From assembly GCA_965248925.1 (NCBI GenBank), contig CBDFLE010000006.1:5024001-5088000 (forward strand): 64,000 nucleotides of DNA. Direction: 5' to 3'. Shown piece after piece: positions 1 through 62,478 of this stretch (positions are counted from its first letter, which is position 1; the number at the start of each line of letters is the position of its first letter). This DNA is from Candidatus Multivoradales bacterium (GTDB lineage Bacteria; Acidobacteriota; Thermoanaerobaculia; Multivoradales; J023). A program made the position numbers and the translations under genes. The notes beneath the pieces are model-generated. The model saw only the letters and a program-made list of their open reading frames with translations. It had not been told where the DNA came from and did no database searches.

Positions 1-127
1 CCGAGCTACGGATGCGGTTCGCGATCAAGAAGGCGCCACCCCGGAGCCTGGCCTTCCCAGGGCCTCGGAACACCTCCGGAGAGGCTCAACCGGACATTTG
101 AGAAAAAGGGTATGTCAGGAGTTCTGG
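1..127 (+). mobile_element. 3' end of an unclassified DDE insertion sequence (same element as 58181-60711), cut off by the window edge
   Basis: 1-127 is the exact reverse complement of the left end of 58181-60711. It includes the transposase stop codon and the terminal repeat ...GGGTATGTCAGGAGTTCTGG, followed by ACT (reverse complement of the AGT target of the other copy). Confidence 0.92.
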
Positions 128-324
128 ACTCGTAGAGGGGATCTCGGTCACAGCGCGATACGCGACTTACACAGATCGGAGCCAGGAACTGGCGATTCTT
201 AGCCCGCTACGAAGACGAGTTGTGGCGGTCGAGGAAGACGACGAAGAAGCGCGCGACGAGGAAATAAAATCGACGAGTCTCTAGCCAAGAAATCGGCGGG
301 CTCAAAAGCCCGTTGACTGCCGCC

Positions 325-3426: not shown

Positions 3427-4073
3427 AAACCCCAACCTTTGATCGATTTGGCCGATTGATCCGCCCTAAACGATGACCGGGAGTGCCGAAATGGTAGGAA
3501 ACCCTTCAACGGAGGGCACGCACATCAAGACTCTTGACACATGTACTCCAGGTGGATCTCCCAAAGCAAGGCTCCCACCCCGAAAAGGTTCCCTCCCAGA
3601 ACTCCTGACCTACCCCCTCTTGGTCGAGCGACAAAGCGGACAGCCTTGGGTCCGCAGCCGCTGGGTCACTGCCATCCCCCGGATCGAGCGCAAATCTCGC
3701 ATCTATTCAGGGTGGCATCGACCTGCTGCTCGTCAGAAGCGGACAGCCTTGGGTCCGCACTCGCAAAGGGCATCGTCATATGCACTACCGGTCGTTCTTC
3801 CCAGCCCAGGCGCTTGTCGAGCTTGCGGACGGCCTTCTCATCGATGCCCAATCGCCAGCCAATCTCGCGATTCGATACACCCTTTGTGCATCAGCGACAA
3901 TTAGAAATGTGCAAACCCGCCGCCGCCGTAGCCGCTGGGCTGTGGGAAACGCGCAGCGTTTTCCAAGGGGTGTGGGAGGGTGCCGTCTGCGGCAGCCTTC
4001 CATGCCCCGGCAGACCGGCGGCTGGGGGGAGTTGGGGGTCCGGGGGAAGAGGGGGGGTTGGTTTTCCACAGGT

Positions 4074-8536: not shown

Positions 8537-9857
8537 GATCCAAGAGCATGCTGAAGCGATCGCCAATCCTGACCCATCAGCGGGCCTGCGGCCCGATCCG
8601 GACCCGACCCAAGATGGACTGTGGAAGCTGCCGCGGCTGTGGAAATCGCTCTGCGATTCCCACAGCCGCTTGGAAAACGCCCCCCGGCCATCCAACCTGC
8701 GTTTCCCACAGCTACGCACAGCCCCGACGACGGGTTATTTGAATACAATCAACCAAGAAGAAAAGCCGGAAGGAGGGCTCCAGCTACAGCGAAAGTGGAC
8801 ACCTACAACTGAGGAGAGCGCCAGCGTCGCTTCGCTCCGACAAGTGGTCGGTTTCGATCGGAATGGCTGGTCAGTTTCGTCGGAATAGGCACTCAGTCGC
8901 CCGCCACTGCTTCACATGGCGCTGAAAGGTGCGCAGCTGCCCCTGGTGATAGCGGTCGGGATGGCGGGCCATCAGATCCTCGAAAAGCGCCTTGCCCTCC
9001 AGCTCGGGAGCCGACTCCAGGCGGGCGGTGATCGCTGGCCAATCGGCCGGGAAAGGGTCCTTGCGGGTACGCCACCGGCGGTCCGCTTTCAACTCCGACG
9101 GCAGACCACCAGCCGCCACATACCGGCGCGCCGTGTTGCGGTGAATGCCGGCTGGTAGAGAGGCCACGCCGATACCGGCGCCTTGCTTCAGCTCGCTCAT
9201 CAGTTTCCTCACTTGTGCGTCTGTAATCACGCCCGCTCCTCGGTCGAGAAAACGAGCATTTTCCCGCCTCTTGGGGGTCGCTAGCGACCCCCAAGAGGCG
9301 GGACTCGGATGCACAGGAGTAATTGTCGTCAGTGCACAGGTCTAATTGTCGCTGAGCACACCCTCGGCCTTCCTGGCGTTAACGGCGTCCAGGCGGCCTT
9401 GCGGTACCCGAGACTGGCCCCGGGGAAAACCACGCGGCCGGCCCAAGGCGGCCAGCCCACCCCCCTCGTAGCGACGCTGGTTCCGACGCCCAGTCCGCAC
9501 ATTACATCTGAACGCGCGGGCGACCTCTCGCTGCTTTGCCCAGCCCTGATCCACGAGGCTCACCATCGCGAAGGCTTCGCCTGCCCGGTCGCCCGCGGCG
9601 AAGTGAGCCAGCGGCATGCTGCTGACGACCACCACTCGGTAGCCGCCCCTCTGCTGAAGGCGGCAGCGGTCGTTGATCACCACGACCCTATCGGGAAAGC
9701 CGATGCGGTCAGGAAACAGGACGGGATTGGCGGTCGTCGGTGCCATACCAGATCATGTCTCGGCAGCGAAAAAGGCGGACAGCCTTGGGTCCGCACCCTC
9801 TCTGAGGACCGACCTTGTGTTTTCAGAGAGTTAGGAGGGGTAGGTCAGGAGGTCTGG

Positions 9858-10495
9858 AATCTGGTGACCCAATGCGATGGCAGTTTGTTCGTTGTTGGCG
9901 CGCACAACACGAAGAGAAGCGGCCGGGGTCACGATTGGGTGGATTGGTATTCGGTCACCATCGGTCCGAACAACACCGTTGGCGTGGCCAAGATCGGCAA
10001 ACACCATCTCTATTTCGACTACCCGGAAGGTAGCAGCGGTAAGTCTCGTCACTGCAATCTGCAGGCCGCGGGCGGAACCTACGTCGACCCCGACGGGCGG
10101 CTGCTGTTCTACAGCACCGAGCATGACAACGACGGGCCGATAGGCAGTGTCAAGTTCGAAGAGTTCCGCTCCAAGACTCTCGGCGACTGCCCGACCATCG
10201 ACCAAGCCTGGACCGACCTCTATGCCGACCCGGACTACAAAGACCGCGGAGTGACCCTCGACTACGCCGACCGAAACTTCGCAACTATCGTAATTGCGAC
10301 GATGTAGAGGACTTCGAAGACAGCATGTCGGGACTGCGCTGGTGCGCCCTGCCGGGGTGGCGCCTACGGCTCTACGAGCATAAGAACCCCTGCGGCGGAG
10401 CTTCGGTGGATCTGCAGAGCAGCGGCGGAATCTCGAGCATCCACTACCAGGGCTTCGGCGACAAACTCTCCTGTTCTCGGTGGCTCCACTTCTGA
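9858..10495 (+). pseudogene. 5'-truncated, frameshifted gene ending in a beta/gamma-crystallin-like domain
   Basis: Coding-like frame starts at the IS end (NLVTQCDGSLF...LYADPDYKDRGVTLDYADRNF). After a frameshift near 10280 it continues DFEDSMSGLRWCALPGWRLRLYEHKN...FGDKLSCSRWLHF*. Confidence 0.65.
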
Positions 10496-11520: not shown

Positions 11521-11526
11521 ATCCCT

Positions 11527-11564
11527 CCAAAAAGGTTCCACCCCTTTCTGGGAGGGGGAACCTT
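11527..11564. repeat. Copy 2 of the 28-bp repeat, extended into an inverted repeat AAGGTTCC..GGAACCTT (possible terminator or recombination site)
   Basis: AAGGTTCCACCCCTTTCTGGGAGGGGGAACCTT lies directly after the ArsR stop codon. Confidence 0.65.
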
Positions 11565-13067: not shown

Positions 13068-14340
13068 CACTGCTGTCCCGTTAACTTCCGACGATTACCA
13101 GTTGTCTTTCGTCTAGTCCTGGGATCGGCGGCGGCTCTCGTTTCAAGAGGGCCATGAGGTCGCGGCGCTCAAAGAGGTTCAATTGAAGGAGGCGCAAGGC
13201 CTCCCGTAAACTACTGGAAAGACGGTGCTTGTGCTTGATGAAAGCGAGCAATAGGTAGACGCACATGGCGATCCAAAGCTGAGTCAGCACGGCGTTGCGG
13301 CTGGTGCCGACGAAAGTCTTGATCTTCAGATTCTGCTTGATCCACTTGAAGAAGAGTTCAATTTGCCAACGTTCGTGGTAGATATCGGCAATGGTCTGAG
13401 GTGACAGGCGGAACAGGTTCGTCAAGAAATAGTAGATCTTGCCGGTCTCAGGGTCGCGATAGCCTACTCTCCGCAGAGGCATCGGGCAGTCACGACACGC
13501 CTTCACACCGGTCCATTCGATCGTTTGGTCGCTCATCAAACCCTTGGAACGATTGACTCTTCGACGTTCGGTCACGCGGTACTTGGCCCCGCGCTTCAGA
13601 CGGGTCACAAAGAAAAGACCCTTCTCGCTCAGCTGACGAAACCAGCTGTAGCTGTTGTAACCACGATCACAAGCTACGATGCTTCCTCGTGGCAGCGTCA
13701 GGCTCTTGCAGCCCGCGATGTCACCTGTTTTTCCATCCGAGATCGCAACGAAGGCAGGCAAGTAGCCACCGTGATCCAACCCCACATGCAGCTTGATCGC
13801 TCCCTTGGTCGTACGAAACTTCGCCCATGGGAATATCGACAGACAGAGGTCTATCACCGAGGCGTCAAGCGAGAACAAGCGGTTCTTGAACCGGAACGTA
13901 TGCTTGGGCGCCACTGCCTGAGCATGCCCCAGAAGTCTCCCAAATAGCTCTTCAAAAAGGAGATAGGGCTTCTCTTCGTTGATCCGTGCCAAGTTAGATC
14001 GCGACAGGACTCGGCAGCCGAGATGGTAGAGCTTGTGCCGCTGCGCTCGTAGATTGTCAACGATGTCGCGCAAGCTAGAACGCCCGGACAGCTGGGCCAT
14101 CATCAGAGCCACCAGCTGCGACCAGCGGCTCGCAGTGCGGAACTGGCGACCGGCGTGGTGGCGTTTTGCGAGGGCCTCGAATTCATGTCTCGAAATCAGT
14201 TGCAGTAGCTGGGCGAAGACGGTGCTATGATGTGCCAAGGCTCAGATCTCCCTTTGATTCAGCCGTTTAGCGATGACTGATTCTATCAAGACCAGGGAGG
14301 TTTGAGCCTATTTTTCTGCGAAGTTAACGGGACAGCAGTG
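13068..14340 (-). mobile_element. IS4-family insertion sequence, copy 1 (1273 bp)
   Basis: 21-bp terminal IR CACTGCTGTCCCGTTAACTTC and 9-bp target duplication TTGTCAGGA. Confidence 0.96.
13081..14238 (-). CDS. IS4-family transposase (DUF4372-like N-terminus + DDE domain)
   Basis: LDASVIDL, CDRGY and the YREK-type motif YHERWQIELFFKWIKQ. Confidence 0.95.
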   Translation of the reverse strand: MAHHSTVFAQLLQLISRHEFEALAKRHHAGRQFRTASRWSQLVALMMAQLSGRSSLRDIVDNLRAQRHKLYHLGCRVLSRSNLARINEEKPYLLFEELFGRLLGHAQAVAPKHTFRFKNRLFSLDASVIDLCLSIFPWAKFRTTKGAIKLHVGLDHGGYLPAFVAISDGKTGDIAGCKSLTLPRGSIVACDRGYNSYSWFRQLSEKGLFFVTRLKRGAKYRVTERRRVNRSKGLMSDQTIEWTGVKACRDCPMPLRRVGYRDPETGKIYYFLTNLFRLSPQTIADIYHERWQIELFFKWIKQNLKIKTFVGTSRNAVLTQLWIAMCVYLLLAFIKHKHRLSSSLREALRLLQLNLFERRDLMALLKREPPPIPGLDERQLVIVGS

Positions 14341-40444: not shown

Positions 40445-40548
40445 TATACTGCTCTCTCTTCATGCTCCATTTGGTGGAGAGAGAGATGGTGGAGTGAGAG
40501 ATGGTGGAGTGAGAGATGGTGGAGTGAGAGATGGTGGAGTGAGAGATG
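40445..40548 (+). promoter_or_regulatory. Putative -10 box (TATACT) followed by 15-bp tandem repeat ATGGTGGAGTGAGAG, each unit with SD, start and stop
   Basis: ATGs at 40486, 40501, 40516 and 40531 each read ATG GTG GAG TGA. The fifth ATG at 40546 opens the C25 gene. Confidence 0.75.
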
Positions 40549-43500
40549 TTTGACATTCTTTGGCGGGTTTTGTACACGCGTTACTTTTGGCTGGCGATTC
40601 TGACCCTCGCCGCCCTCGGCAGTGCCGGGCGTAGCCTGGCGGAGACCATCACCTGGACCGGTGCGGCAACCAACAGCTTCGATATCTCTGCGAACCAGAC
40701 CCTCGCGACGGCCGAGAACCCCTGCAACGGCGAGACCGTGACCGCGACTTTCAGCGATCCCGATTCGGCTGCGTCCGGCGCTTTCCCAGGAGTGGCATTC
40801 GGTACCATCCCTTACATGGCGATGAACGCCGCGGCGCCCAACGAGACGGTTCAGCTCGACCTGCTATTCGGCGGTGGTCTGCCGGTCGAAAACCTCTCCT
40901 TCCTCATCTATGACGTCGACCGGTCCAACGACAGCGGCAGCTCCTGGAACGATGTACTGACCGTCACCGCCGCCTTTGGACCCACTGCCACCGCTGTAAG
41001 CCTCGCCTGCAATGATGGTGATGGAATCTGTTCCTTTACCATCACCGGCAGCGGCACCACCAATGCGATCGCCACCAGCGGAACCAACAACCCGGTGTTT
41101 ACCTCTGCCAACGGCCAGGTCGTCGTCACCATCCCGGGCCCCGTCGATAGTGTCTCGATCGAGAACTTGGCCGGTGGCCCCGGCACAAACTTCCAGGTCA
41201 TCGGATTCGGGGACCTCGACTTCGACTGCTCGACCGTGCCGGTGACGGTGGCGGCCTTCGAGAGTTCGCTCGATGCCAAAGCGTTGAGTGCAACCTGGAC
41301 CACCTCTTCGGAGACCTCGAACCTCGGCTTCGAGCTGTGGGGAGAAAGCGAGGGTGAGTGGCAAGCACTCGACATGCCAATCGTACCGAGTGCTGCCGTA
41401 GACTCGCTGGTTCCTCAGTCCTACCACACGCAGATTTCGGCTCTCCGCCTCGACCGCTTGATGCTGGCCGAGATCGACACTCGTGGCCGGCGCCGCATGC
41501 ACGGACCGTTCGAGTTGGGCAAGTCTTACGGTGGAGCGGTCACTAACCGAGCGATCGACTGGGATGCGATCCGCAGAGAGCTTGAGCGCGGATCTAAACG
41601 CGGCGTCGCTCGACCCGCCATCGACCCTGGCACCGAGCCGGCAGCCGCGGAGCTTCGGGTCGAAGAAACCGGTATTTACCGAGTGACCTACGAGCAGCTG
41701 GCATCTGTCGGCCTCGACTTGGCTGGCGTCGATCCGACCTCGATCGCCCTGACCGAACGCGGTCTTGGTGTACCGCGCCGGGTGATCACCGGCACGAGAG
41801 CCAGCTTCGGCCCTGGCGGAAGCGTCGAATTCTTGGGGCAAGCCCTCGACACCCTCTTTACAAGAACGAACGTCTACCGGTTGTCCGTCAATCGCAGCCG
41901 CGTTCTCGCCGCAACCGAACGCGAGGTCTCCCCCGGCGCCACTGCCGCTGAGGCGTACACCGAAACCCGTTGGATCGCGCCGCAGAACCAGTACAGCTTC
42001 GGCACCCCGAGCAGTGACCCGTGGTTCGCCGACCGTCTGCTGGCTTTCACCACGCCGGTCAGCCGTGACTACCCTCTCGCCGTCGACCACTTGACCGCGG
42101 GAAAGGCCGAGTTGGTGGTCGAGCTCTGGGGGGTGACCAACCTTGACGAGTTCGCTCCAGACCATCACGTCGAGATAGCACTCAACGGAACGGCACTCGG
42201 CGAGCTGATCTTCAATGGCTTGCAGTCGCAGCATCTCGCGGTCGAGATTCCAGATGGCCTGCTTTCCGAGGGCGACAACACCCTCACTCTTACCTTGCCC
42301 GCGGATACGGGAGCACCTTTCGACTTGGTGCACCTCGAAGGCTACGGTGCGACTTACCCGCGTCGCTTCATAGCGACCGGCGACCGTCTCTCGTTCACCG
42401 ACAACGCTATCGATTTCGCTGTTGATGGCCTCGGCTCGTCCAAGGTCGTAGCCTACTCTTGGGACGGCAATGTGCTGCATCATCTCGGTCCGATCAAGGT
42501 CGAGCCGACGGCGCTCGGCAACGCCGCCCGGTTCCGCGGAATCCGCAGCCGAGGACAGACCTACTGGGTCTCGACCGTCGAGTCACTCCAAGTGCCGTCG
42601 GTCTCGCTCGCTCAGCCGGCGGCGGCGGATCTTCTGAGTGGCGAGGCGGAATACCTTGTCATCAGTCACCCTAGCTTCATCGACGGCCTCGCCCCCCTGC
42701 TCGAAGCACGGCAGCGGGATGGCTACTCGGTCAAGGTGGTCGACGTCGAGGATCTCTATCGACAGTACACGGGCGGAGTTTTCGACCCCGAGGCCATCCG
42801 TTCCTATCTGAGGGAAGCGGCATCGCGCCTAGGCACGCGTATGGTGCTCTTGGTCGGGGGTGATTCCTACGACTATCTCGACCACCTCGCCCTGGGATCA
42901 GTGAGTTTTTTGCCCACGCTTTACGCGCGCGTTCACCCGGTGGTGAGCTTCGCCCCCGCCGACTCCCTGCTGGCGGACCTCGACGGCGACGGTCTTCAGG
43001 ATCTGGCTATCGGACGGCTTCCGGTCCGCACCGCGGCTGAGCTAGATCAGGTGATCAGCAAGACCCTTGCCTACGGCATGGCCGCCCCGGCGGCGGTGGT
43101 TGCCGCCGACAGGCACGATGGCCGCACTTCGTTTCGCACCGCCAGCGAGCAAATCGCCGACACCCTACCCAGCTATTTCGAGATCACGCGAGCCTACGTC
43201 GACGACCTCGGAGCGGTAGCGGCCCACGACACGCTGTTGGCCGCGCTGGAAGACGGCGTGCCCATCGTCAGCTACACCGGACACTCCGGCCCGGCGGCAT
43301 GGAGCTTTGATAACCTCCTCACCACGACCGACGCCGACGGACTCGGCAACTTCACCAGCCCGACCGCGGTATTCGCGTGGGGCTGCTGGAACGCCTATCA
43401 CTCCGTGCCGCAGTACGACACCCTGAGTCACCGTCTGCTGTTGGCACCGGCAGGTGCCGCCGCCTTGGTCGGAGCCGCCACTCTGACCAGTGCCGACTCC

Positions 43501-43680: not shown

Positions 43681-43871
43681 TGCTGTAGCTCACCATTGCT
43701 AATATCGACGGTGAGTCTGCATGGCTGGATTGGGAAGGCCGCCAGCGGAACCTTCCCAATCTCTGAGTCGTTTTCATCAACAAACCTCCTTTTCGAGCGG
43801 TCTCGGGACAGCCGTCTGCCGACCCTCTGGACCGGTCTCAGAGATCTATGCGCCAACTAGTCGCGAAGTGG

Positions 43872-46625
43872 CTAGTCTGGTTTGGCAGTGGAGCCGTCCA
43901 ATTCGCTAACCGCCAACTCGACTGGCTTGGAAGGACGGAGGCCGATGTCGAATGCTTTGCTCAGGTGGATCTGGTAGCGAGCAGCGGTCCGGCTGGCGAA
44001 CAGGCGATCATAGCCGCCGCCGCGAAACACCCGCAGCGGCTCCGGCATGGCGGCGACGACATCCGCCGGCACTAAGCGCAATCCGTCGGTGGCGCGCAGC
44101 GGCAGCTCGAATGAGCCGAAGTCGCGACACCACTCCCAGACGTTGCCGACCGTGTCGTGCAGGCCGAATGGGTTGGCGCGGTAGCTGCCTACCGGCGCGG
44201 TGTGCTGGTAACCGTCGTCCCAGGGTGCGGCTCGGCTCTTCTCGATCCGGCCGGTGCGGTAGTAGCGCTGGTCGCCGATGTTGGCGGTGCCGCGGACGCT
44301 CTCAAACCGATCGCCTGCCCACCACACGCTGCTAGTGCCGGCGCGGGCCGCGTACTCCCACTGCGCTTCGGTGGGTAGGGTCAGACCGAGTCGCCGCATG
44401 GTCTTGTCGGCCGCCCACCAGTTGACCCTCTCGACCGGATGGCGCAGGTTGTGTAGCTGCCCATCGACCCACTCGCCGGCTGGCCGGGAACTGGGATTTT
44501 GGTGATTGATCCGCTGCCACTGCCCCTGGGTCATTTCGTATTTGGAGAGGAAGAAGGGATCGCCGAGGGTCACCCTGTGTATCGGCCCTTCGGAGCTGCG
44601 GGCCCAGGGGTCGAGATTGGCGCCGCTGATCTTGGCATCGTCACTTGGCGGTTGCTCCGCGCCCATGCGAAAAGTCCCCGCCGGGATCAGGACGAACACT
44701 AAGCTGGTGGTGATGCCGATCCGCAGCTGGCCATCGTTGCCGCGACCTGGAATTTCGCCAGTAGGCAGGTGGGCGAATTCCCACAGACCGCTGTGGGGAT
44801 CGCGGCCGACCGGCACCAAGCCTAGTTGAGGGGCGATTCTCAGGCCCTCGTAGGCGGGGCTGCGTTGCGGGTCGGCGATCGCCGTGATGGCCTCTTGCCA
44901 CAGCTCACCGGGTTCCTCCACGGTCTGCCGCCGGACGTTGCGGGCGACCGTCAGTCGTTGGCGCAGGCGCGCGATCTGACCGGCCTTGGGGTGGGTCAGC
45001 TGTTCGAGTTTCTCAACCAGCTCGGCGAGAAGCTGATGGCGGAACTCGGTTGCCACGTCGGCGAACACCTCGCGGCTGACCGGCCGGCCGGCAGAGTCGG
45101 CGTGCACCCGGCGGGTGGTCTCACCACCGTGCGAGCGCAGCTCTTTGAGCTGCTGCCGGTACTGGGGTAGGCGCTGTGCCAACTGGTTTGCATCGCCGGC
45201 TAGCCAGCGCTCCATGGCGTCGATCTTCTGCGGCTGGGCGGGCCAGATCTCGTCGGCTTCGCGGAGCACCCGAGCGAGCAGCTCGCGGTCCGAGAGCCGT
45301 AGCAGCTGATCGCTCTTCCCTTGACTCTCGAAGTAGAAGTGAGTGCTGACCACCAAGCCGAGGATCAAGGCTAGAAAGACCGCCGTGACGGCGCCGAAGA
45401 ACGCCCTATGACGTTGCACCAGGCGGCCCAGACGGTAGCTGAAGCTGGCGCCGCGGGCCAGCACCGCCTCGCCGCGCAGATGGCGGTCGAGGTCGGCGAG
45501 CAGCTCCGACACCGACGAGTAGCGCTGTTCGCGATCCTCCGCGAGGGTGGTTTGGACGATGGCATCGAGATCGCCGCGCAGGGCCAGAGTGAGTTGGCGC
45601 GGGCCGCTGCCGCGCTCGGCAGCGATCGCGGCGCGGCGGGTGCCGGCTCGAGCCAACCGTCCGCTGGGCGTCGGCGGCTCGCTGGCCGCCTGGGCCGAGC
45701 GTGCCGCGCTGCTGCCGGCTAGCCCGGCCGCTTCGCCATGGGGCAGTTCGCCGCACAGCAGCTCGAAGAGCACCACACCGAGGGAGTAGATATCAGAGCG
45801 GGTGTCGACCGAGGGATTCCAGGGATCGGCCTGTTCCGGGCTCATGTAGGCCGGCGTGCCCATCAGCGTGCCGAGGCAGGTGTGCAGGGTCTTGTCGGTC
45901 AGCGGTCGATCGAGGGCTTTGGCGATACCGAAGTCGATCACCTTTGGCTGCGGCTCTTGATCCTCCGGTACGAGGATGTTGGAAGGCTTCAGATCGCGGT
46001 GAATGATGCCTTTCTCATGGGCGTGCTGAACCGCTCGGCAGACTTTGGTCAACAGCCGTAATCGGGCTCGCAGGTCGAGGCGGTGGTAGTTGCAGTAGGT
46101 GGTGATCGGCAGCCCTTCGACGTACTCCATGGCGAAGTAAGGCCGCCCGCTGTCGCTGATTCCGGCGTCAAAGACAGCCGCGATCCCGGGGTGATTCATC
46201 ATCGCCAACGCCTGGCGTTCCTGCTCGAAGCGGGCGACGATCTCGCCGGTCTCCATCTCCGGCTTGAGCACTTTCAGTGCCACCCGACGTTCCACCGGCT
46301 GTTGTTGAGCCGCCAGATAGACCACCCCCATTCCACCCTCGCCGAGCTGGCTGATGATGCGGTACGGGCCGAGCCAGTCGGCAACGCTGAGTTGGGAGTG
46401 GGGTGCCACGCCGCGGGCGGGGTAGGGAACGCCGAGCTGATCGCCACCCGCGGGAACTTCGAGAAAGGTCTCGGCTGCCTTGAGATGAGCGAGCAGGGAC
46501 AGGGCTTCTTCCGCTAGCGCCTGATCGTCGCCGGCGGATTCGCGGACCGAGGCGCGGCGTCGTCGAGTGGTCGGATAGCGGATAGCGCGAGCGAAAATCT
46601 GCTCGACCGCGGGCCGCTGGGTCAC
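43872..46625 (-). CDS. Ser/Thr protein kinase with TM helix and C-terminal FGE-sulfatase (SUMF1) domain
   Basis: GEGGMGVV, HRDLKPSN, DFG and YMSPEQ; LPTEAQWEYAARAG and NPFGLHDTVGNVWEWC. GTG start overlaps the sigma stop. Confidence 0.93.
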   Translation of the reverse strand: MTQRPAVEQIFARAIRYPTTRRRRASVRESAGDDQALAEEALSLLAHLKAAETFLEVPAGGDQLGVPYPARGVAPHSQLSVADWLGPYRIISQLGEGGMGVVYLAAQQQPVERRVALKVLKPEMETGEIVARFEQERQALAMMNHPGIAAVFDAGISDSGRPYFAMEYVEGLPITTYCNYHRLDLRARLRLLTKVCRAVQHAHEKGIIHRDLKPSNILVPEDQEPQPKVIDFGIAKALDRPLTDKTLHTCLGTLMGTPAYMSPEQADPWNPSVDTRSDIYSLGVVLFELLCGELPHGEAAGLAGSSAARSAQAASEPPTPSGRLARAGTRRAAIAAERGSGPRQLTLALRGDLDAIVQTTLAEDREQRYSSVSELLADLDRHLRGEAVLARGASFSYRLGRLVQRHRAFFGAVTAVFLALILGLVVSTHFYFESQGKSDQLLRLSDRELLARVLREADEIWPAQPQKIDAMERWLAGDANQLAQRLPQYRQQLKELRSHGGETTRRVHADSAGRPVSREVFADVATEFRHQLLAELVEKLEQLTHPKAGQIARLRQRLTVARNVRRQTVEEPGELWQEAITAIADPQRSPAYEGLRIAPQLGLVPVGRDPHSGLWEFAHLPTGEIPGRGNDGQLRIGITTSLVFVLIPAGTFRMGAEQPPSDDAKISGANLDPWARSSEGPIHRVTLGDPFFLSKYEMTQGQWQRINHQNPSSRPAGEWVDGQLHNLRHPVERVNWWAADKTMRRLGLTLPTEAQWEYAARAGTSSVWWAGDRFESVRGTANIGDQRYYRTGRIEKSRAAPWDDGYQHTAPVGSYRANPFGLHDTVGNVWEWCRDFGSFELPLRATDGLRLVPADVVAAMPEPLRVFRGGGYDRLFASRTAARYQIHLSKAFDIGLRPSKPVELAVSELDGSTAKPD

Positions 46626-56190: not shown

Positions 56191-57463
56191 CACTGCTGTC
56201 CCGTTAACTTCCGACGATTACCAGTTGTCTTTCGTCTAGTCCTGGGATCGGCGGCGGCTCTCGTTTCAAGAGGGCCATGAGGTCGCGGCGCTCAAAGAGG
56301 TTCAATTGAAGGAGGCGCAAGGCCTCCCGTAAACTACTGGAAAGACGGTGCTTGTGCTTGATGAAAGCGAGCAATAGGTAGACGCACATGGCGATCCAAA
56401 GCTGAGTCAGCACGGCGTTGCGGCTGGTGCCGACGAAAGTCTTGATCTTCAGATTCTGCTTGATCCACTTGAAGAAGAGTTCAATTTGCCAACGTTCGTG
56501 GTAGATATCGGCAATGGTCTGAGGTGACAGGCGGAACAGGTTCGTCAAGAAATAGTAGATCTTGCCGGTCTCAGGGTCGCGATAGCCTACTCTCCGCAGA
56601 GGCATCGGGCAGTCACGACACGCCTTCACACCGGTCCATTCGATCGTTTGGTCGCTCATCAAACCCTTGGAACGATTGACTCTTCGACGTTCGGTCACGC
56701 GGTACTTGGCCCCGCGCTTCAGACGGGTCACAAAGAAAAGACCCTTCTCGCTCAGCTGACGAAACCAGCTGTAGCTGTTGTAACCACGATCACAAGCTAC
56801 GATGCTTCCTCGTGGCAGCGTCAGGCTCTTGCAGCCCGCGATGTCACCTGTTTTTCCATCCGAGATCGCAACGAAGGCAGGCAAGTAGCCACCGTGATCC
56901 AACCCCACATGCAGCTTGATCGCTCCCTTGGTCGTACGAAACTTCGCCCATGGGAATATCGACAGACAGAGGTCTATCACCGAGGCGTCAAGCGAGAACA
57001 AGCGGTTCTTGAACCGGAACGTATGCTTGGGCGCCACTGCCTGAGCATGCCCCAGAAGTCTCCCAAATAGCTCTTCAAAAAGGAGATAGGGCTTCTCTTC
57101 GTTGATCCGTGCCAAGTTAGATCGCGACAGGACTCGGCAGCCGAGATGGTAGAGCTTGTGCCGCTGCGCTCGTAGATTGTCAACGATGTCGCGCAAGCTA
57201 GAACGCCCGGACAGCTGGGCCATCATCAGAGCCACCAGCTGCGACCAGCGGCTCGCAGTGCGGAACTGGCGACCGGCGTGGTGGCGTTTTGCGAGGGCCT
57301 CGAATTCATGTCTCGAAATCAGTTGCAGTAGCTGGGCGAAGACGGTGCTATGATGTGCCAAGGCTCAGATCTCCCTTTGATTCAGCCGTTTAGCGATGAC
57401 TGATTCTATCAAGACCAGGGAGGTTTGAGCCTATTTTTCTGCGAAGTTAACGGGACAGCAGTG
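56191..57463 (-). mobile_element. IS4-family insertion sequence, copy 2 (1273 bp)
   Basis: Same IRs and identical transposase to copy 1; 9-bp target duplication AGGATTGAT. Confidence 0.96.
56204..57361 (-). CDS. IS4-family transposase
   Basis: Protein identical to 13081-14238. Confidence 0.95.
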   Translation of the reverse strand: MAHHSTVFAQLLQLISRHEFEALAKRHHAGRQFRTASRWSQLVALMMAQLSGRSSLRDIVDNLRAQRHKLYHLGCRVLSRSNLARINEEKPYLLFEELFGRLLGHAQAVAPKHTFRFKNRLFSLDASVIDLCLSIFPWAKFRTTKGAIKLHVGLDHGGYLPAFVAISDGKTGDIAGCKSLTLPRGSIVACDRGYNSYSWFRQLSEKGLFFVTRLKRGAKYRVTERRRVNRSKGLMSDQTIEWTGVKACRDCPMPLRRVGYRDPETGKIYYFLTNLFRLSPQTIADIYHERWQIELFFKWIKQNLKIKTFVGTSRNAVLTQLWIAMCVYLLLAFIKHKHRLSSSLREALRLLQLNLFERRDLMALLKREPPPIPGLDERQLVIVGS

Positions 57464-58180
57464 AGGATTGATACACCACACTTGATTGGGCTGGCTGCAA
57501 GTCCGCCAATCCAACAGGGTGGTTGGTTCTGTCTTGACCTCGAATTTCTCGGCGGCGGCACCCTGTGGATGGGTGTAGTTGTTGAAGTTCGACTTCAGCG
57601 TTGGCATCACTTGCAGCCATTCGCTGTAGTCCATGGGGGGGGAATTCATCGCTATATCTCAGCCAGCCATCGGCCGGGCAGCTGGCGATGTATTGGTTGC
57701 GGAGCAGCATCCAATCGCGGAGGTGTTTGAAGTGGTTGGTCGCCGGCCGGGGGGTGCCAATCATGGCTACGGCTTGCTGGTTGTTGAGCAGGGTGCTGTC
57801 GACCACGCGGATGGCGCTGGAGGAGATGCCCTGAACGCCGGTGACATTCCCTTCGAGGTGACATTCGGCGACCCAAGTGCTGGGGTCCACAACCGGGTTG
57901 GCCCACAGCGGCCAGGAATCGTTGGCTTCGAAGTAGATGCCCGCACCTTGGTTGTTGGTGATCGAGCAGCCTTCGATGGCCAATGCCTGATTCTCGTAGT
58001 CGAACCAAAGACCGTTGCCGTAGTTGCCGTCGGCGATGATGTCGACCACATGTCCTTGGGCAAGCTTGCGTACTTGGCACCGGTGGTGGCGTTGCCGATC
58101 ACCCCGGCCTGGCGTCCGCGCCAGTTGTTGCGCGAAAACTCTTCGCCGATTACCGCGAAGTCGCGGGCGCTGCCCAGAGT

Positions 58181-60711
58181 CCAGAACTCCTGACATACCC
58201 TTTTTCTCAAATGTCCGGTTGAGCCTCTCCGGAGGTGTTCCGAGGCCCTGGGAAGGCCAGGCTCCGGGGTGGCGCCTTCTTGATCGCGAACCGCATCCGT
58301 AGCTCGGTGCCGGGGAAGTGGGTGGCGGTAGCGTTGAGTTCTTCGCAGACGGCGGCGATCGCCGCCGTCTTGTGGGGAGAGCTGAGCGGGTCGATGGAAA
58401 GGAGCAGCACGGTGTCGGTAACCTCCATATCGCCGCCGGCCGCGAAAGCGCTTTGGATCAGGGTGCGTCCCTCCTGCTCGGTGCGGCGGTAGTGGGGTGA
58501 TAGGAGCCGGAGAAGATCACCTTCGGCCTGGTAGGCGACCATCTTGAGAATATCGGTGAGGTGCTTGCGCTCGACGGACAGCTTGATGACATCCGCTTCG
58601 ACGACCTCTTGGACGGGGACGCGGACGGGGAGGGTCGCGCGCTGGTTCTCGAGTTCGGTGATCTGCTCTATCGCTGCCCGGACCCTGGCGGAGATGGCGG
58701 CGTTGGCGATCTTGAATCCGCGCATCGTGCGCCGCCGATCCTCGCGGTTTTCAAGAGCAGCGATCCCGATGTGGGCCCGGAGCTGCTCGAGATGTGCGTG
58801 AGCTTTGCGCAGCTCTGCATTGATCTTGCCGCGCTCGGGATTCGGCACATCGCGGGCGGCGTCCGCTGGCTCGGTGCCATAGTCCACCAGGGCATCGAGT
58901 GCGAATTCTTCGCGCAGGTATTTGAAGAAGTTCTCTTGCCTCCAACGATCGAACATGCGGTAGGCGACCTCGAGTGTGGAGAGGTCGCGGCGGGAGGTGA
59001 TGATGGACGTCTGGTGGCCGTTGTCGCAGAGGCGGGTGACCTGGCGCAGGTACAGCCGCTTGCGCTTCTTCCTCGGGCCATACTCGAGGTAGATACGCTG
59101 ATCGGCGAGGAGGTACTCGAGCTTCCGACCGTGGATCGTGTCCTTGATCTGCCCGAACTTGCTCAACGGCACCGGACGAAAGGGGGCCTTTCGGTATGTG
59201 AGGATGTCGAACTTCTTGGCGATGAGCTTCGCAAACAGCTTCGGGCTCCAACCCCCACGGTCGAAGACGACGGTGACTCGCCGGTCTCCGAGTAGCTTTC
59301 GTACCTCTTCGAGAATGAGGGGAAGCATCGTCGCAAGCCCCTTGTTGGCCTCGGTGGGGACCACGAAGAGAGGCTCGCTCTCAGCATCGTTGACCCAGTA
59401 GTCGGTGGTGGCCGGCATCGCGATCCGCATCCGCGCTACGTGTGTCTTGGGAATCTCTCGGCCACCGTGGTAGGCGCGCACATGCCCGTCCACGTAGAGG
59501 AAGCCCATGGCATGGCCCCTGGTGGCGACCCGGCGCTGAGCGAGGGCGCGACCGAGATCCGCGGCCAGGCCATGCGCGGCCAGCCGAGCGAGCTTGTTGC
59601 GCAAGGTTTTCACTTCCGGCGCTCGGTCGAGCCCGAGAAGCTGACCCAAATGCCGGGGTGAGCGCTCCTTGAGCCCTTCGGGTCGCTTGACCCGCAACAG
59701 TGCCATCAGCAGCAGGGTTACCAGAGTGGTGCGCAGCCCATAGAAGGCCGGCCCGATGCTGCCGTACAGCTCCTGCGCGATGGAGAGCACGCCGCTGTCC
59801 ACCAGGGCGGGAATCGCCAGCAGAGCACCGGCGCCCGGTAGCTGGGTCGCCGCTCCGAAGATCGGCGCCGCATCATCGAGGAATCCCAGCCTCGCCAGCA
59901 GCCGATCGCTGGCGCGATCCGCTGGATCGAGGTCCAGCGAGAGGGGAACCTGATCTTGCTCGGACGCAGAAGCGGACAGTTTTGGGTCCGCAGCCGCTGG
60001 GTCACCGCCACCCTCAGCGTCGAGCGCAAGATCCGCAGTTTTCAGGGGGCCGTCGACCTGCTGCTCATCAGAGGCGGACAGTTTTGGGTCCGCACTCTCG
60101 AAGGGCATCGTCATCTGCACTACCGACCGCTCTTTCCAGCCCAGGCGCTTGGCGAGCTTGCGAACGGCCTTCTCATCGATGCCCAGCCGCCGGCCAATCT
60201 CGCGATTCGACACACCCTCGGCCTTCCAGCCGTTGACCGCGTCCAGGCGGCCCTGCGCTACCCGAGACTGACCCCGGGGAAAACCGCGCGGCCGGCCCAG
60301 AGCAGCCAGCCCACCTTCTTCGAAGCGGCGCTGATTCCGGCGCACAGTCCGCACATCACAAGCGAACGCAAGGGCCACCTCGCGTTGCTGTGCCCAGCCC
60401 AATTCAACGAGACTCACCATCGCGTGGGCCTCGCCTGTCCTGTCGCCGGCAGCGAAGTGAGCGAGCGGCATGCCGCTGACCACCACCACCCGATAGCCGC
60501 CCCTCTGCTGGAGGCGGCAGCGGTCGTTGATCACCACAACCCCATCGGGGACCCCGGCGTGGTCTGGGAACAGGACGGTGTGCTCGCTCGTCAGTGCCAT
60601 GCTCGATCATGCCTCGGCACCGAAAAAAGCGGACAGTTTTGGGTCCGCACCACCTCTGAGGGGCGGTCCTGTGTTTTCAGAGGGTTAGGAGGGGTAGGTC
60701 AGGAGGTCTGG
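58181..60711 (-). mobile_element. Unclassified DDE insertion sequence, 2531 bp
   Basis: IRs CCAGAACTCCTGACATACCC and GGGTAGGTCAGGAGGTCTGG; 3-bp target duplication AGT; removal restores the host reading frame. Confidence 0.9.
58207..60600 (-). CDS. Large (797 aa) DDE transposase with tandem N-terminal HTH domains
   Basis: HTHs (QQREVALAF.CDVRTVRR and SNREIGRRLGIDEKAVRK); catalytic YVDGH, VFDRGG and RWRQENFFK. Confidence 0.88.
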   Translation of the reverse strand: MALTSEHTVLFPDHAGVPDGVVVINDRCRLQQRGGYRVVVVSGMPLAHFAAGDRTGEAHAMVSLVELGWAQQREVALAFACDVRTVRRNQRRFEEGGLAALGRPRGFPRGQSRVAQGRLDAVNGWKAEGVSNREIGRRLGIDEKAVRKLAKRLGWKERSVVQMTMPFESADPKLSASDEQQVDGPLKTADLALDAEGGGDPAAADPKLSASASEQDQVPLSLDLDPADRASDRLLARLGFLDDAAPIFGAATQLPGAGALLAIPALVDSGVLSIAQELYGSIGPAFYGLRTTLVTLLLMALLRVKRPEGLKERSPRHLGQLLGLDRAPEVKTLRNKLARLAAHGLAADLGRALAQRRVATRGHAMGFLYVDGHVRAYHGGREIPKTHVARMRIAMPATTDYWVNDAESEPLFVVPTEANKGLATMLPLILEEVRKLLGDRRVTVVFDRGGWSPKLFAKLIAKKFDILTYRKAPFRPVPLSKFGQIKDTIHGRKLEYLLADQRIYLEYGPRKKRKRLYLRQVTRLCDNGHQTSIITSRRDLSTLEVAYRMFDRWRQENFFKYLREEFALDALVDYGTEPADAARDVPNPERGKINAELRKAHAHLEQLRAHIGIAALENREDRRRTMRGFKIANAAISARVRAAIEQITELENQRATLPVRVPVQEVVEADVIKLSVERKHLTDILKMVAYQAEGDLLRLLSPHYRRTEQEGRTLIQSAFAAGGDMEVTDTVLLLSIDPLSSPHKTAAIAAVCEELNATATHFPGTELRMRFAIKKAPPRSLAFPGPRNTSGEAQPDI

Positions 60712-62478
60712 AGTCTCGCCGCCGATGCCGTTGTCGTTGGCTTGATTGCGCATCAACAGGATGTCATTGAGGGGATTGGGCGACTGTCCGCCGACGCCGA
60801 GGCCGTGGGAATTGTTCCAATCAAAGAGGTTCTCGAGCAGGGTCAGGCGCTGTGAGTTGAACAGCCCGACCGCGCTGCTGAGCATCGGGAAGCGGCAGTC
60901 CGGGGAGTCTTCGTTGCCCAGGCAGCCCCCTTGTTGGGCGATGTCGTAGGCGCCGGTGCTGTGTTGGAAATGCAGGCCGCGGAGCTGCCAGTCGTAGACG
61001 TAGTTCAACCACAGCAGCCGAGGTTGTACGGCGATCTCGACCTTGGCCTGATTCATGTTGACGCCGGGTGGCGGCAGAACGCGAATCGGGCAAGGGGCGG
61101 GTTCGGTGCATAGACCTGAAACCCAACGATTGTTTTCTTGATGATTGTAGCCGCCGTAGCCGACCCCGTCTTCGACCAGAAAGCTGCCCGGATCCATGTC
61201 GGCGGTGGCCTGCTCCTGGCGCAAGGGTTGGCCGTCGATGAAGACCATCTCAGCGCGCCGCATCAGTGGCAGCAGTTCTCCCCAATATGTACTCTTGCGG
61301 GCCAAGCCCCAATCGTGGAGCCAACTTTTCTGGGACGAATCGTTGACATAGAAGGTCTGGGTCGTCGAGGTGGAGGCATGCGCCGGGGTGAAGTAGGTCC
61401 ACAGGTAGTCGCGGGGGGTGGTATCGAACCTGTTGTTGTATCGCAAGATAGGCGCTACCATCGGTGCCGTCCTTGGCGGATATTCTGAAAACTTTATTGA
61501 CCGACGCTGAGTAGCCGAGGGTTGGCAGGTCCGGAATGAACTGGATGTTGACGTCGACCAGGCTCTTCTGCCAGATAGCCCGATTGAATCCTGAACCTTG
61601 CAACAACTCGTTGTGGCTGTTCTCGGTGATGGTGACGTTGTCGGGCAGCCAGACCCCGGACCAATCTTCGGAACCCGAGATCACCGCGCTATGGCGGGTT
61701 ACGGACTCGACCACTACTTGGGCCAGTCCTGGTGGATTGATCACTCGTCCGTCGATGCCGTCATAGCCTTCGCGGTAGGTTCCTTCGCAGACCAGCACGG
61801 TGGTGTTGCGACCGCTTTCTTGGCGGTTGATGGCGGCGTCGATGCCGTCGTTGAATTTACAGAAGGGACCTCCCTGGCTGCCGTCCTGAGTGCCGTTCAC
61901 AGTGCAGCCCGGACCATTGACAAAGAGCACCTCGGACGGCTCCCACGGGCTGACAAAACCCTGGTCACAGACCGAGCACTGCTTGGCGTCGACGTAATTC
62001 GGCCAGCATTGCTCGATCGGGTTACCGAGGTCGATGCATTTGAGGTAGGTCTGCCACAGGTACTTGCCCTTGGCGTTGCTACAGTCGGCCCGCTCGCTCT
62101 CGCACGCCTTCAGGCATTGCAGATCCTCGCTGCCGGTGCCGTAGCTCTGGATGGCAGCCGCCGCGCCGCAGAGTTCGGCGCAGTTGTGCTGCCAAGCGGC
62201 CGCCGGGGTGTTGGCCAGCAAGACGAGGAGGAGCCCGCAGAGGGGCAGGCCGGATAGCAAGAGGGGCTTTCTGGGGGACGGGGGCGAGATCATCGGTATT
62301 CTCCTAAGTGGGTTTTTTCGAGGCGGCTCCACCGCTGCTCGTCTCAATCCACGAGAATTCCGCGAACAGCCTGCCAAAAAAGATTGTCTACAGAGCCAGC
62401 CATGGCGAATGAACACCCACTTCCGGAGGTAGAGTTCGCTAGTGGAGAGTTCACCCAGTTGCCATGGAGAGTACGCAT

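Follow-up and report, generated by a model that had tools for sequence, protein, structure and literature searches.

Why does a bacterial insertion sequence (IS) carry one palindromic word upstream of its transposase gene and twice more inside the reading frame? The question arises in a 64,000-nt stretch of the genome of Candidatus Multivoradales bacterium, referred to here as the window, in which GCGGAC-N8-GTCCGC occurs six times where 0.02 occurrences are expected by chance (0 of 100 shuffled sequences reached six). An earlier note on this DNA had reported three such boxes in each of two elements, and all six are there: those at 59972, 60074 and 60629 carry the spacer AGTTTTGG (CCAAAACT in the sense direction), and those at 3636, 3739 and 9775, in a diverged relative, share a different one, AGCCTTGG. 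The two internal boxes of the first element encode a repeated ADPKLSAS, as had been noted, within an ORF of 797 aa (58207–60600).

An autonomous insertion sequence and its split relative

The IS is present in the genome as 26 full-length copies that are 99.6–100% identical and have the same ends throughout. All 26 read CAGA...TCTG between two G-ANT-C flanks, which for the window copy occupy positions 58177–58181 and 60711–60715. With 26 copies, inverted repeats, direct A-N-T duplications and an intact transposase gene, it qualifies as an autonomous insertion sequence. Within this genome the copies read the same under a 3-bp or a 5-bp duplication. Across 48 related loci the flanking 5-mers are identical in 30 and the central 3-mers in 32, and the only two loci that discriminate (L038 and L042) both favour a 3-bp duplication with CCAGA..TCTGG ends, the arrangement proposed earlier. 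Counting the window copy and 55 of the 80 related loci, 56 elements conserve the tip CAGA(A/C/T)CTCCTGAC, which PF21804 subfamilies that lack the boxes carry as well.

A further copy is cut by the window edge; its visible part is 100% complementary to the right end of the first (1–131 with 58177–58307), and it spans C6:5021593–5024131. A scan of the element for sigma-70 promoters returned no sites; by inspection, a candidate −35 lies in the tip and a candidate −10 near nt 32–38. No MITE-like short derivatives were found in this genome, save one decayed copy of 1144 bp (G000:C6:4843749–4844892), whose deletion runs exactly from box 1 to box 3. The diverged relative does have the three boxes attributed to it, but it is a split remnant rather than an intact element, its halves separated by the roughly 5.5 kb of two IS21-like elements. 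In its second part the catalytic domain is deleted, and a right-tip-like sequence (3597–3617) is joined about 16 nt past the last box.

Table 1 Features of the element and of related sequences in the window.
Feature	Position	Strand	Remarks
Insertion sequence	58181..60711	-	2531 bp, assuming a 3-bp duplication
Left (transposase-proximal) terminal inverted repeat tip	60694..60710	-	CAGACCTCCTGACCTAC
Box 1, leader, non-coding	60623..60652	-	GGTG-GCGGACCCAAAACTGTCCGC-TTTTTT; 48 nt upstream of ATG
Transposase ORF, 797 aa	58207..60600	-	Intact in 26/26 full copies; Pfam PF21804
Bipartite HTH DNA-binding domain coding region	60145..60441	-	HTH1 about aa 54-101, HTH2 about aa 116-152
Box 2, within ORF, phase 0	60074..60093	-	Encodes ADPKLSA; starts about 15 codons past HTH2
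Box 3, within ORF, phase 0	59972..59991	-	102 nt after box 2
Region coding for the catalytic domain (Transposase_29, aa 229-771)	58288..59916	-	Pfam
Right-end half-box	58209..58220	+	AAATGTCCGGTT, given from the right tip inwards
Right terminal inverted repeat tip	58182..58198	+	CAGAACTCCTGACATAC
Right end of a further identical copy, opposite orientation, cut by window edge	1..131	+	
Diverged-relative remnant, left part	9357..9862	-	Tip, leader box 9775-9794 (sense spacer AAGG), ORF start
Diverged-relative remnant, second part	3597..3883	-	Boxes 3739-3758 and 3636-3655, spacer AAGG

A divergent transposase with a bipartite DNA-binding domain

The transposase matches Transposase_29 (PF21804) over nearly the whole profile (positions 6–558 of 562), with 257.6 bits against a cut-off of 27 and an E-value of 2.5e-76. 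Other PF21804 subfamilies score far higher, up to 736 bits, and the window transposase is therefore a divergent branch. A Foldseek search with its catalytic domain (model mean pLDDT 67.8) returned Tn5 transposase for all six best matches, at borderline E-values (1e-3 to 3e-3). The Pfam DDE_Tnp_1 model, whose cut-off is 23 bits, gives it 15.6 (E 0.014) and a relative (L091) 22.7. None of the NCBIfam IS-family models reaches its cut-off; the best scores are 25.4 bits for IS630 (cut-off 100, HTH region only), 19.4 for IS21 (160), 15.9 for IS5_3 (110) and 14.0 for IS1634 (100), which by the equivalog test leaves the protein outside IS5, IS1634, IS630, IS21 and IS481. A sequence search of the PDB gave nothing relevant.

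The protein collection holds at least 7,920 homologues, a very large and unnamed insertion-sequence group. In the literature searched, PF21804 appears in one paper only, within a list of accessions, and no description of the family turned up among papers on GANTC targets, on transposase-bound sites near the ends or in the interior of elements, or on IS repeats that evolve in concert.

The N-terminal domain consists of a small beta-sheet (aa 21–50) followed by two helix-turn-helix (HTH) units. Pfam matches (HTH_29, HTH_28 and HTH_23 at aa 61–106, and a second HTH at aa 125–153) and an AlphaFold model (mean pLDDT 83.9) agree on the HTH units, bearing out the extra N-terminal HTHs suggested before. 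The top Foldseek rows for this domain include the DNA-binding domains of Mos1, SETMAR, TnsB, Pax, Tc3 and IstA, at E-values of 4e-3 to 0.4, all above 0.001; the first row is a CRISPR-repeat-binding protein.

A conserved nucleotide motif in leader and coding sequence

Genome-wide, the N8 spacing accounts for 83 sites and each other spacing from 0 to 15 for between none and three, and every exact GCGGAC-N8-GTCCGC lies within this IS. With a relaxed 15-mer, 88 of 96 matches fall in IS-homologous DNA and the remaining eight are two-mismatch sites. A 1-nt variant confined to box 2 is found in five of the genome's copies.

Beyond this genome, species-representative genomes hold at least 468 relatives, and we compared 80 related loci with the window copy. 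Relatives from many phyla, with transposases only 51–87% identical, share a motif of about 28 nt, GGGTGCGGACCCAAA(C/A)CTGTCCGCTTTT, which they have once in the leader and one to four times in the linker-coding region. The internal boxes are always in phase 0, and the leader box stands in phase 0, 1 or 2 relative to the ORF. Among 121 distinct boxes, eight columns are invariant and nine more are at least 90% conserved; conservation is asymmetric, with an invariant 3′ half and a variable 5′ arm. Box codons 1, 2, 3 and 6 have invariant third positions across all 31 elements compared, where 43 conserved residues of the adjoining domain have a mean entropy of 1.47 bits. These frozen synonymous positions support the view, advanced in the earlier note, that the boxes are under nucleotide-level selection as cis-acting signals embedded in coding sequence. 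They are not specific to the element, as that note had supposed, because the motif is family-wide and the AGTTTTGG spacer itself is common to elements of other phyla.

Some PF21804 subfamilies do without boxes (L088–L091, L097 and a Streptomyces plasmid element). They have the same N-terminal HTH architecture, and this domain therefore does not require the motif in general. A plasmid collection yielded one distant relative (28% identity), which has no boxes.

An inverted half-box at the right end

A fourth site, absent from the earlier three-site description, lies at the right end. In the window copy TGTCCGG begins 31 nt from the tip and overlaps the final codons of the ORF. Of 48 distinct right ends, 43 have the half-box TGTCCG(C/G)TT, inverted relative to the left box, against a background of 13 in 1420 windows; it starts at nt 30–32 in 41 of those 43, and the five other right ends have one-mismatch variants in the same place. 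The core common to both ends is CCAAAnnTGTCCG(C/G)TTTT, one near each end and in inverted orientation. The left site stands about 60–75 nt from its tip in most elements and the right one at a defined tip distance, which is the layout of subterminal repeats.

Concerted change and mosaics

A leader box differs from the nearest internal box of the same element by a mean of 0.605 mismatches, compared with 2.02 when elements are permuted (0 of 5000 permutations). The variants GGGGAC, GCGAAC, TCGAAC, GCGCAC, AAAA and ATAT are common to leader and internal boxes and are scattered over both transposase trees. In one element (L067) the same 1-nt deletion is found in all three boxes, the reading frame having been readjusted upstream. 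An 86% relative in this genome (G000:C6:894738–897275) has the spacers AAAA, AAAA and AAGG, so that AAGG occupies box 3 alone, while in the remnant it occupies all three boxes with the box flanks unchanged; the TCGAAC state in L051 and L035 likewise represents partial and full spread. Both pairs appear to be conversion caught midway.

The homogeneity has exceptions. Five elements contain different spacers (L069, L011, L029, L039 and L043), a clade of four (L063, L066, L070 and L077) has two leader boxes that differ stably, and the number of internal boxes varies from one to four through gain and loss of units. The proposal that spacers change in concert within an element thus holds as a tendency, and identity is not obligatory; the mosaics go part of the way towards the independent variation that had been named as counter-evidence. 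Concerted change is real but leaky. The suggested co-variation of box variants with HTH residues did not materialise, none being visible in alignment or tree. A likeness between box spacer and IS tip (CCAAACCT and CCAGACCT) was dropped because tips and spacers do not co-vary across elements.

Function of the boxes

The best reading of the boxes is a transposase-binding or operator role, and to this extent the operator or enhancer function envisaged earlier probably stands, stripped of its element-specificity. More precisely, and with middling confidence, we propose that the boxes are binding sites for the paired-like bipartite HTH domain of the transposase, homogenised by short-tract gene conversion. 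The left site occupies the leader, downstream of the presumed promoter and upstream of the ATG, and binding there would in addition repress the transposase gene at the level of transcription. An extra 5′ arm (GCGGAC) and a T-run give the left-type box the look of an intrinsic terminator, which may also block read-through from outside. The one to four left-type boxes in the coding sequence of the flexible linker, just past the DNA-binding domain, would be accessory binding sites that could serve looping and autorepression, transpososome assembly, or the retention of new protein at its own element. Likeness among the boxes of an element would be kept by short-tract gene conversion and not by co-evolution with the protein.

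On the side of binding, Mos1, SETMAR, Tc3, TnsB and IstA, among the structural look-alikes, have bipartite domains that read transposon ends. Against it, sites 560–900 bp inside an IS are unusual for end-binding sites, and the model leaves unexplained why the internal boxes copy the 5′ arm and T-run when the right-end site has no arm. The box-less PF21804 subfamilies and the lack of co-variation with the HTH helices also count against it, and the binder could be a host factor common to many phyla.

The box may instead act as RNA or during transcription, as a hairpin with a U-run that terminates or pauses the polymerase, a reading we regard as rather unlikely. The leader copy and an inward-facing hairpin of tip and half-box at the right end would then insulate the IS from outside transcription, and the internal copies would attenuate or pause transcription past the region coding for the DNA-binding domain. 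Box 1 does have the stem-loop and T-run of an intrinsic terminator (a 6-bp stem with five GC pairs, an 8-nt loop and TTTTTT) and is the sole terminator-like site in a scan of the element. Forty of the 49 distinct leader boxes, and 15 of the 78 internal ones, have a T-run of at least five after them. Each of the three window boxes is predicted to form the hairpin in its minimum-free-energy fold, and at the right end of the window copy the fold lets the half-box pair with the inner part of the tip. In L095 the leader box has become a perfect hairpin (8-bp stem, 4-nt loop) with TTTT behind it, which suggests that structure matters in the leader. Yet evolution has not maintained the structure. Compensatory changes number zero in 120 distinct boxes, each deviation breaking a pair (96 cells unpaired), so the hairpin is not what is conserved in this palindrome. 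The full 6-bp stem survives in only 42 of 121 boxes, GCGAAC and GGGGAC have spread despite disrupting it in the middle, the window boxes fold no more stably than shuffled sequences (z −0.1 to −1.5), and the single terminator-like site compares with a chance mean of 1.4 for the region. A terminator, moreover, requires structure and not an invariant 20-nt sequence common across phyla; the invariant 3′ half and the absence of compensatory changes fit protein recognition better than a hairpin. A small alternative hairpin (GGGU/ACCC) was rejected, with 66.7% of cells paired, equal to the shuffled value. Rfam gave no family match (two hits, both with E above 1). A second hairpin is predicted over the start codon.

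Were the binder a host factor that bacteria widely conserve, for instance a nucleoid protein or the polymerase, the near-identity of the motif in elements of many phyla, the missing co-variation with the transposase HTH helices and the shared DNA-binding architecture of box-less subfamilies would all be expected. We think this unlikely, since in this genome the motif is confined to the IS (apart from weak matches to the relaxed 15-mer) and since a fixed distance from the right tip is what a transposase site would show; to our knowledge, the motif resembles no familiar host-factor consensus. With inverted 6-bp arms on either side of an asymmetric 8-bp spacer, the boxes look like the core sites of recombinases, and if they served site-specific recombination their spacers would have to match between partners. 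The decayed copy deleted between boxes 1 and 3 and the gain and loss of internal units speak for such exchange. It is very improbable all the same, because the sole ORF encodes a predicted DDE transposase and no cognate recombinase, the arms are unequally conserved, exchange between direct repeats would remove the DNA-binding domain, mosaic spacers persist, and replication slippage would be expected to produce a single deletion of this sort between direct repeats of 20 nt. The earlier suggestion of recombination sites needing identical spacers finds little in a genome with one box-to-box deletion.

Two readings at the level of translation and protein earn little credence. The internal boxes contain a slippery heptamer, C-CCA-AAC (C-CCA-AAA in the window), at which a −1 shift could yield a truncated DNA-binding protein or the ribosome could pause; we hold such recoding to be very improbable too. 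Wherever the ORF is intact, every linker box holds the heptamer in phase 0, the window copy meets a −1 frame stop four codons past box 2, and PMC5009743 links frameshift-associated pausing in IS911 to co-translational binding and cis preference. Across 39 elements, however, the −1 stop may be as near as 4 codons or as far as 385, and the tail is not consistently short; no stimulatory structure lies downstream of the heptamer, since what the 3′ arm pairs with precedes the shift site; the copy in the leader is identical yet non-coding; and the variants CCCAGAA and CCCAAGG are not slippery. Frameshifting at CCCAAAC was accordingly set aside, the heptamer being in phase without the consistent −1 outcome of a programmed frameshift cassette. 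The conserved feature might otherwise be the peptide (A)DPNLSAF, a short linear motif of the linker that could, for example, bind the beta-clamp. NLSAF matches three of five positions of the consensus QL(S/D)LF given in the review PMC5371812, which also has the transposases of several IS families binding the clamp, and PNLSAF is kept in L067 despite its different upstream frame. This is scarcely credible, given frozen synonymous sites and an identical sequence retained in the non-coding leader; the final F occurs in only 13 of 31 first internal boxes, and the window copy has KLSAS.

Returning to transposase binding, it is conceivable, though doubtful, that the linker boxes, set within the transposase reading frame, form an array for docking or enhancement that would serve cis-tethering and looping to the leader. 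The emerging DNA-binding domain would meet its own sites on the DNA immediately downstream of its coding region, at a place where an RNA hairpin and U-run may be prone to pausing. New protein would be tethered to its source element (cis-preference) and could loop to the leader box, turning expression off, and repeated pairing of boxes would drive the gene conversion that keeps them identical.

Relation to known systems

Multi-site ends are known from Tn7 and CAST elements (TnsB sites), IS21 (IstA terminal repeats) and Mu (L1–L3, R1–R3 and an internal enhancer about 1 kb from the left end). As there, sites of about 20–28 bp are repeated for an N-terminal HTH domain (a predicted role here), their number and spacing are unequal at the two ends, and more lie deep inside; chains of TnsB and IstA are among the structural look-alikes of the N-terminal domain. 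Unlike those systems, the catalytic domain appears Tn5/IS4-like rather than of the rve/Mu type, the extra sites lie in the transposase coding sequence and are read as protein, and there is no accessory ATPase gene. The element would represent a variant of multi-site transposon ends not described in the literature searched. It offers an unusually clean putative regulatory DNA word overlaid on protein-coding sequence, whose copies evolve in concert, and a tractable system for asking by what means a transposase locates the element that encodes it, what holds transposition in check when a genome carries dozens of copies, and how short repeats are homogenised. Tip and box motifs together give a simple signature for delimiting such elements in metagenomes.

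Auxiliary operators within coding sequence, such as lac O2 in lacZ and gal OI in galE, act by DNA looping, and the present arrangement of a primary leader site with identical or similar sites a few hundred bp downstream in the gene is alike. The lac and gal operators serve host regulons with dedicated repressors, whereas the presumed binder here is the product of the same gene and sites are also found at the far end. Tc1/mariner elements (Mos1, Tc3, Sleeping Beauty) share the bipartite HTH domain and an asymmetric site of about 26–30 bp, with more than one site per end in their IR/DR members, and Mos1, SETMAR and Tc3 are among the best, though weak, fold matches (E 6e-3 to 0.15); they differ in catalytic family, in their TA target and in having their sites within inverted repeats and not in the ORF.

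IS200 has a left-end terminator and IS10 is protected from outside transcription. Their leaders resemble this one in placing a GC-rich stem-loop and T-run between left end and start codon; here it is sequence rather than structure that is conserved, and the word is repeated in the ORF and at the right end. With IS4/IS5-type elements, some groups of which (in IS5) make ANT duplications, the element shares a single ORF, short terminal inverted repeats and a 3-bp A-N-T duplication; its transposase, by contrast, is about twice as long and bears the added bipartite HTH domain.

Results and discussion

A recurrent box in an insertion sequence

The palindrome GCGGAC-N8-GTCCGC occurs six times in the window, where 0.02 sites are expected by chance and none of 100 shuffles reached six. 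An earlier note on this DNA had reported these six sites with two concerted spacers, and both observations stand at every position: three sites with the spacer AGTTTTGG lie in an insertion sequence (IS), one in the leader between its left tip and the ATG (box 1) and two inside its single ORF (boxes 2 and 3, translating as ADPKLSA(S)), while three with AGCCTTGG belong to a diverged relative without the catalytic domain (the remnant). The host assembly (7.98 Mb, six contigs) holds 26 full-length copies of the window IS at 99.6-100% identity, all with intact ORFs, together with one interrupted copy and several fragments. Across the genome the N8 pattern is found 83 times, and each other spacing from 0 to 15 gives 0-3 sites.

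Every full-length copy in the genome is bounded by G-A-N-T-C / CAGA...TCTG / G-A-N-T-C, a string that target duplications of 3 bp and of 5 bp would both produce here. Of 48 related loci for which both flanks are present, 30 have identical 5-mers and 32 identical central 3-mers. Two loci discriminate (L038 and L042), and both favour 3 bp, which assigns the adjoining C/G (or T/A) to the element, as first proposed for the window. The central trinucleotide is unequal in the remaining 16, many of them short metagenome contigs on which the flanks may come from different copies. Elsewhere in the genome two copies stand head to tail with one GACTC common to right and left tips, which resembles the junctions of elements transposing through circles or dimers. 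Two ORFs flank the window IS on its own strand, the downstream one with a right-handed beta-helix domain (E 3e-7); the insertion may have split a gene, and by count of the listed ORFs the two are not in one frame.

Residues 229-771 of the transposase match Pfam Transposase_29 (PF21804, E 2.5e-76). Pfam also recovers the extra N-terminal HTHs described earlier, as HTH_29/28/23 at aa 61-106 and a sigma-70-region-4-like second HTH (HTH2) at aa 125-153. DDE_Tnp_1 scores below threshold, and no NCBIfam IS-family model reaches its cut-off. The model of the first 169 residues (mean pLDDT 83.9) contains a four-stranded sheet at aa 21-50 and, after it, two HTH units of three helices each with a flexible linker between them. 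In Foldseek the top row for this domain is a CRISPR-repeat-binding protein, after which come, among others, bipartite DNA-binding domains from Mos1, SETMAR, TnsB, Pax and Tc3 and, further down, IstA; all E-values fall between 4e-3 and 0.4, so these matches give fold class, not homology. The catalytic part is modelled more weakly (mean pLDDT 67.8), and each of the top six matches to it is Tn5 transposase (E 1e-3 to 3e-3). Together, the profile results and fold matches point to an unclassified DDE insertion sequence of IS4/IS5-like type to which a paired-like DNA-binding domain has been added; we found no description of the family in the literature.

A scan of species-representative genomes gave 468 relatives, of which 80 loci (L-numbers) were kept and examined. 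At 51-87% protein identity, these span Planctomycetota, Verrucomicrobiota, Acidobacteriota, Proteobacteria, Actinomycetota, Chloroflexota, Nitrospira and others. Where the left part is included, almost every locus has the box in sense orientation, with the consensus GGGTGCGGACCCAAACCTGTCCGCTTTT; across 121 distinct aligned boxes G15, A17, C18, T26, T28, C29, C30 and G31 are invariant and nine more columns are at least 90% conserved. The boxes are family-wide rather than element-specific, as had been supposed, and the window IS spacer (sense CCAAAACT) recurs in several lineages as a common minor variant. The spacer AAGG occurs only in the remnant lineage of the host genome.

About 50 distinct elements with both tips define a shared anatomy. 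The tips read CAGA(A/C/T)CTCCTGACATAG, and in most elements the leader box starts 61-75 nt from the tip, farther where the leader has insertions. It is non-coding and can be in any of the three phases (0, 1 or 2). A run of at least five T comes after 40 of 49 distinct leader boxes, and roughly 25 nt separate this run from the ATG. Another one to four boxes (linker boxes) are found 550-690 nt 3′ of the leader box, where the ORF encodes the linker just past HTH2, as tandem units of 57-123 nt that are always multiples of three. In L045 the leader module is multiplied, with five boxes before the ORF at a spacing of 99-100 nt; the left region of L074 carries a 302-nt duplication. Boxes are lacking in the PF21804 subfamilies represented by L088-L091 and L097 and in a Streptomyces plasmid element (28% identity), which all have the same tip and the same N-terminal pair of HTHs; the boxes are therefore an innovation within one large PF21804 subfamily.

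Concerted change among boxes

Over 20 nt, the mean difference between a leader box and the nearest internal box of its own element is 0.605 positions, compared with 2.02 when elements are permuted (0 of 5000 permutations); the test ignores relatedness among elements, and common descent by itself cannot account for likeness between two different sites of one element. Of 38 elements, 28 have one or more internal boxes equal to the leader box, and in 22 all boxes are identical. Box variants are scattered over trees of both the catalytic and the HTH part (quick FastTree builds, midpoint root), yet are common to leader and internal boxes of each element, and sister elements differ in both boxes together (L072 versus L047; L058, L048 and L042). 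Intermediates also occur. An 86% relative in the host genome has spacers AAAA, AAAA and AAGG, and its closest kin, the window remnant, has AAGG in all three boxes with unchanged flanking sequence; TCGAAC spreads stepwise in L051 and L035.

The concerted change noted earlier is therefore real and repeated, but leaky. Seven loci hold unlike boxes within one element (L069, L011, L029, L039, L043, L071 and L033), the clade of L063, L066, L070 and L077 lacks linker boxes and has, 78 nt apart, two leader boxes that differ stably, and five copies at different places in the host genome carry a 1-nt variant only in box 2. The earlier note had suggested checking for co-variation with HTH residues; the helices do not vary along with the boxes. 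We read the pattern as short-tract gene conversion among boxes, under selection for the core motif, and see in it no need for spacers to be identical. A decayed copy of 1144 bp retains the two tips and a single box with spacer CCAAACCT; its deletion extends exactly from box 1 to box 3.

Putative transposase-binding sites near both ends

We identified a fourth site, absent from the earlier note. From the right tip inward, 43 of 48 distinct right ends have TGTCCG(C/G) and then at least two T, with the start at nt 30-32 in 41 of them; the other five right ends have one-mismatch variants at the same place, and the background is 13 of 1420 sequence windows. With this half-box, the core CCAAAnnTGTCCG(C/G)TTTT lies near both ends in inverted orientation, a layout classical for transposase-binding subterminal repeats. 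Left ends of the family also conserve TG(A/T)AA(A/T)(C/T) at nt 31-39, a distance from the tip nearly equal to that of the half-box on the right. It may be a -10-like element whose partner is CTGACA in the tip; a promoter scan of the element did not call it.

With moderate confidence, we favour the boxes as putative sites for the bipartite HTH domain of the transposase, the best-supported reading. The right site, at its fixed tip distance, and the left site would position transposase at the ends; the left site, being in the leader, would also allow autorepression, its added arm and T-run would form a terminator-like block, and the linker copies would be accessory sites. The same two-HTH architecture in subfamilies without boxes weakens the case that the N-terminal domain must bind this motif. 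Sites for a host factor seem improbable; 88 of 96 matches in a relaxed 15-mer search lie in DNA homologous to the window IS. Recombination sites are very improbable. In the boldest reading, a rather doubtful one, the linker boxes would hold nascent transposase at the element that encodes it and loop to the leader box; the co-translational cis action described for IS911 (PMC5009743) offers a precedent.

The linker boxes of intact ORFs are all in phase 0 and encode (G/A)-A-D-P-(N/K)-L-S-A-(F/S) (exceptions are L056, with a broken ORF, and L074, with a duplicated leader). The codons indicate that selection on the box acts on nucleotides: in the first internal box all 31 of 31 elements agree at the third positions of codons 1, 2, 3 and 6, and the entropy at codon 5 is 0.21 bits, against a mean third-position entropy of 1.47 bits over 43 amino-acid columns at least 90% conserved in the adjoining domain. 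L067 has lost the same C from all three boxes, coding and non-coding alike, and its frame is re-set upstream of the internal boxes to give CGPNLSAF in place of ADPNLSAF, with the 797-aa frame open. We consider a peptide motif, such as a clamp-binding site, the least probable reading, and recoding sites hardly more probable. Purely RNA-level terminators or pause sites are unlikely, if less so. The 6-bp stem is paired in 86.7% of cells and complete in just 42 of 121 boxes; no pair is changed on both sides among 120 distinct boxes, and 96 of 96 deviating cells break the pair. Variation is concentrated in the 5′ arm (GCGAAC, GGGGAC, TCGAAC, GCGCAC) and the 3′ arm is invariant. As a structure, the palindrome is thus not conserved. 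In the leader the box may still have a structural role, because box 1 is the sole terminator-like site in the element and the L095 leader has a perfect 8-bp stem and T-run. An alternative small hairpin found no support. A second hairpin is predicted between T-run and ATG, over the start codon region, in the window IS, L041 and L050; the left-end alignment shows no clear Shine-Dalgarno in that interval.

Remnant and repeats elsewhere in the window

Coordinates of features in the window, the host genome (G000:C6, outside the window) and related loci
Feature	Position	Strand
Window IS	58181..60711	minus
Transposase ORF (797 aa)	58207-60600	minus
AGTTTTGG sites	59972, 60074, 60629	minus (element)
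Right-end half-box, overlapping last ORF codons	58212-58218	
Second predicted hairpin	60598-60622	
Left-end TG(A/T)AA(A/T)(C/T)	about 60672-60680	
ORFs flanking the IS	57447-58196, 60685-61461	minus
Remnant	9357..9862, 3597..3883	minus
AGCCTTGG sites	3636, 3739, 9775	
Right-tip-like sequence	3597-3620	
Insertion splitting the remnant	3884-9356	
IS21-like element 1	istB 4074-4841, istA 4838-6325	minus
IS21-like element 2	istA 6204-7778, istB 7538-8536	plus
40-nt inverted repeat	6050-6089 / 8839-8878	
33-nt repeated motif	3394-3426, 3580-3595, 11522-11554	
Direct repeat	13068-13367 / 56191-56490	
Five tandem units	25137-26989	
Duplicated segment	39965-40367 / 43771-44117	
15-nt tandem repeat	40457-40553	
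86% relative	G000:C6:894738-897275	
Tandem IS dimer	G000:C6:4303607-4308683	
Decayed copy	G000:C6:4843749-4844892	
Multiplied leader module	L045:1018-1460	
Duplicated left region	L074:220-565	

The remnant is split by about 5.5 kb with two IS21-like elements in opposite orientations, a region that also holds an inverted repeat. Because a right-tip-like sequence (CAGAACTCCTGACCTACCCCC) is joined about 16 nt past its last box, the remnant looks like an internally deleted derivative in which the two tips and the three boxes survive; CCTCC on one side of it and GAATC on the other do not form a target duplication. A repeated motif, AAAAGGTTCC(A/C)CCCC..TTTCTGGGAG (94% identity), flanks the remnant region and may be the end of another mobile element. 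An exact direct repeat of 300 nt or longer, 43 kb apart, is probably another multi-copy element, and tandem units of 336-351 nt (60-78% identity) within a long coding region indicate a repeat-domain protein. One segment is duplicated at 93-96% identity, 3.8 kb apart, and a 15-nt repeat (TGGTGGAGTGAGAGA) is present in five tandem copies.
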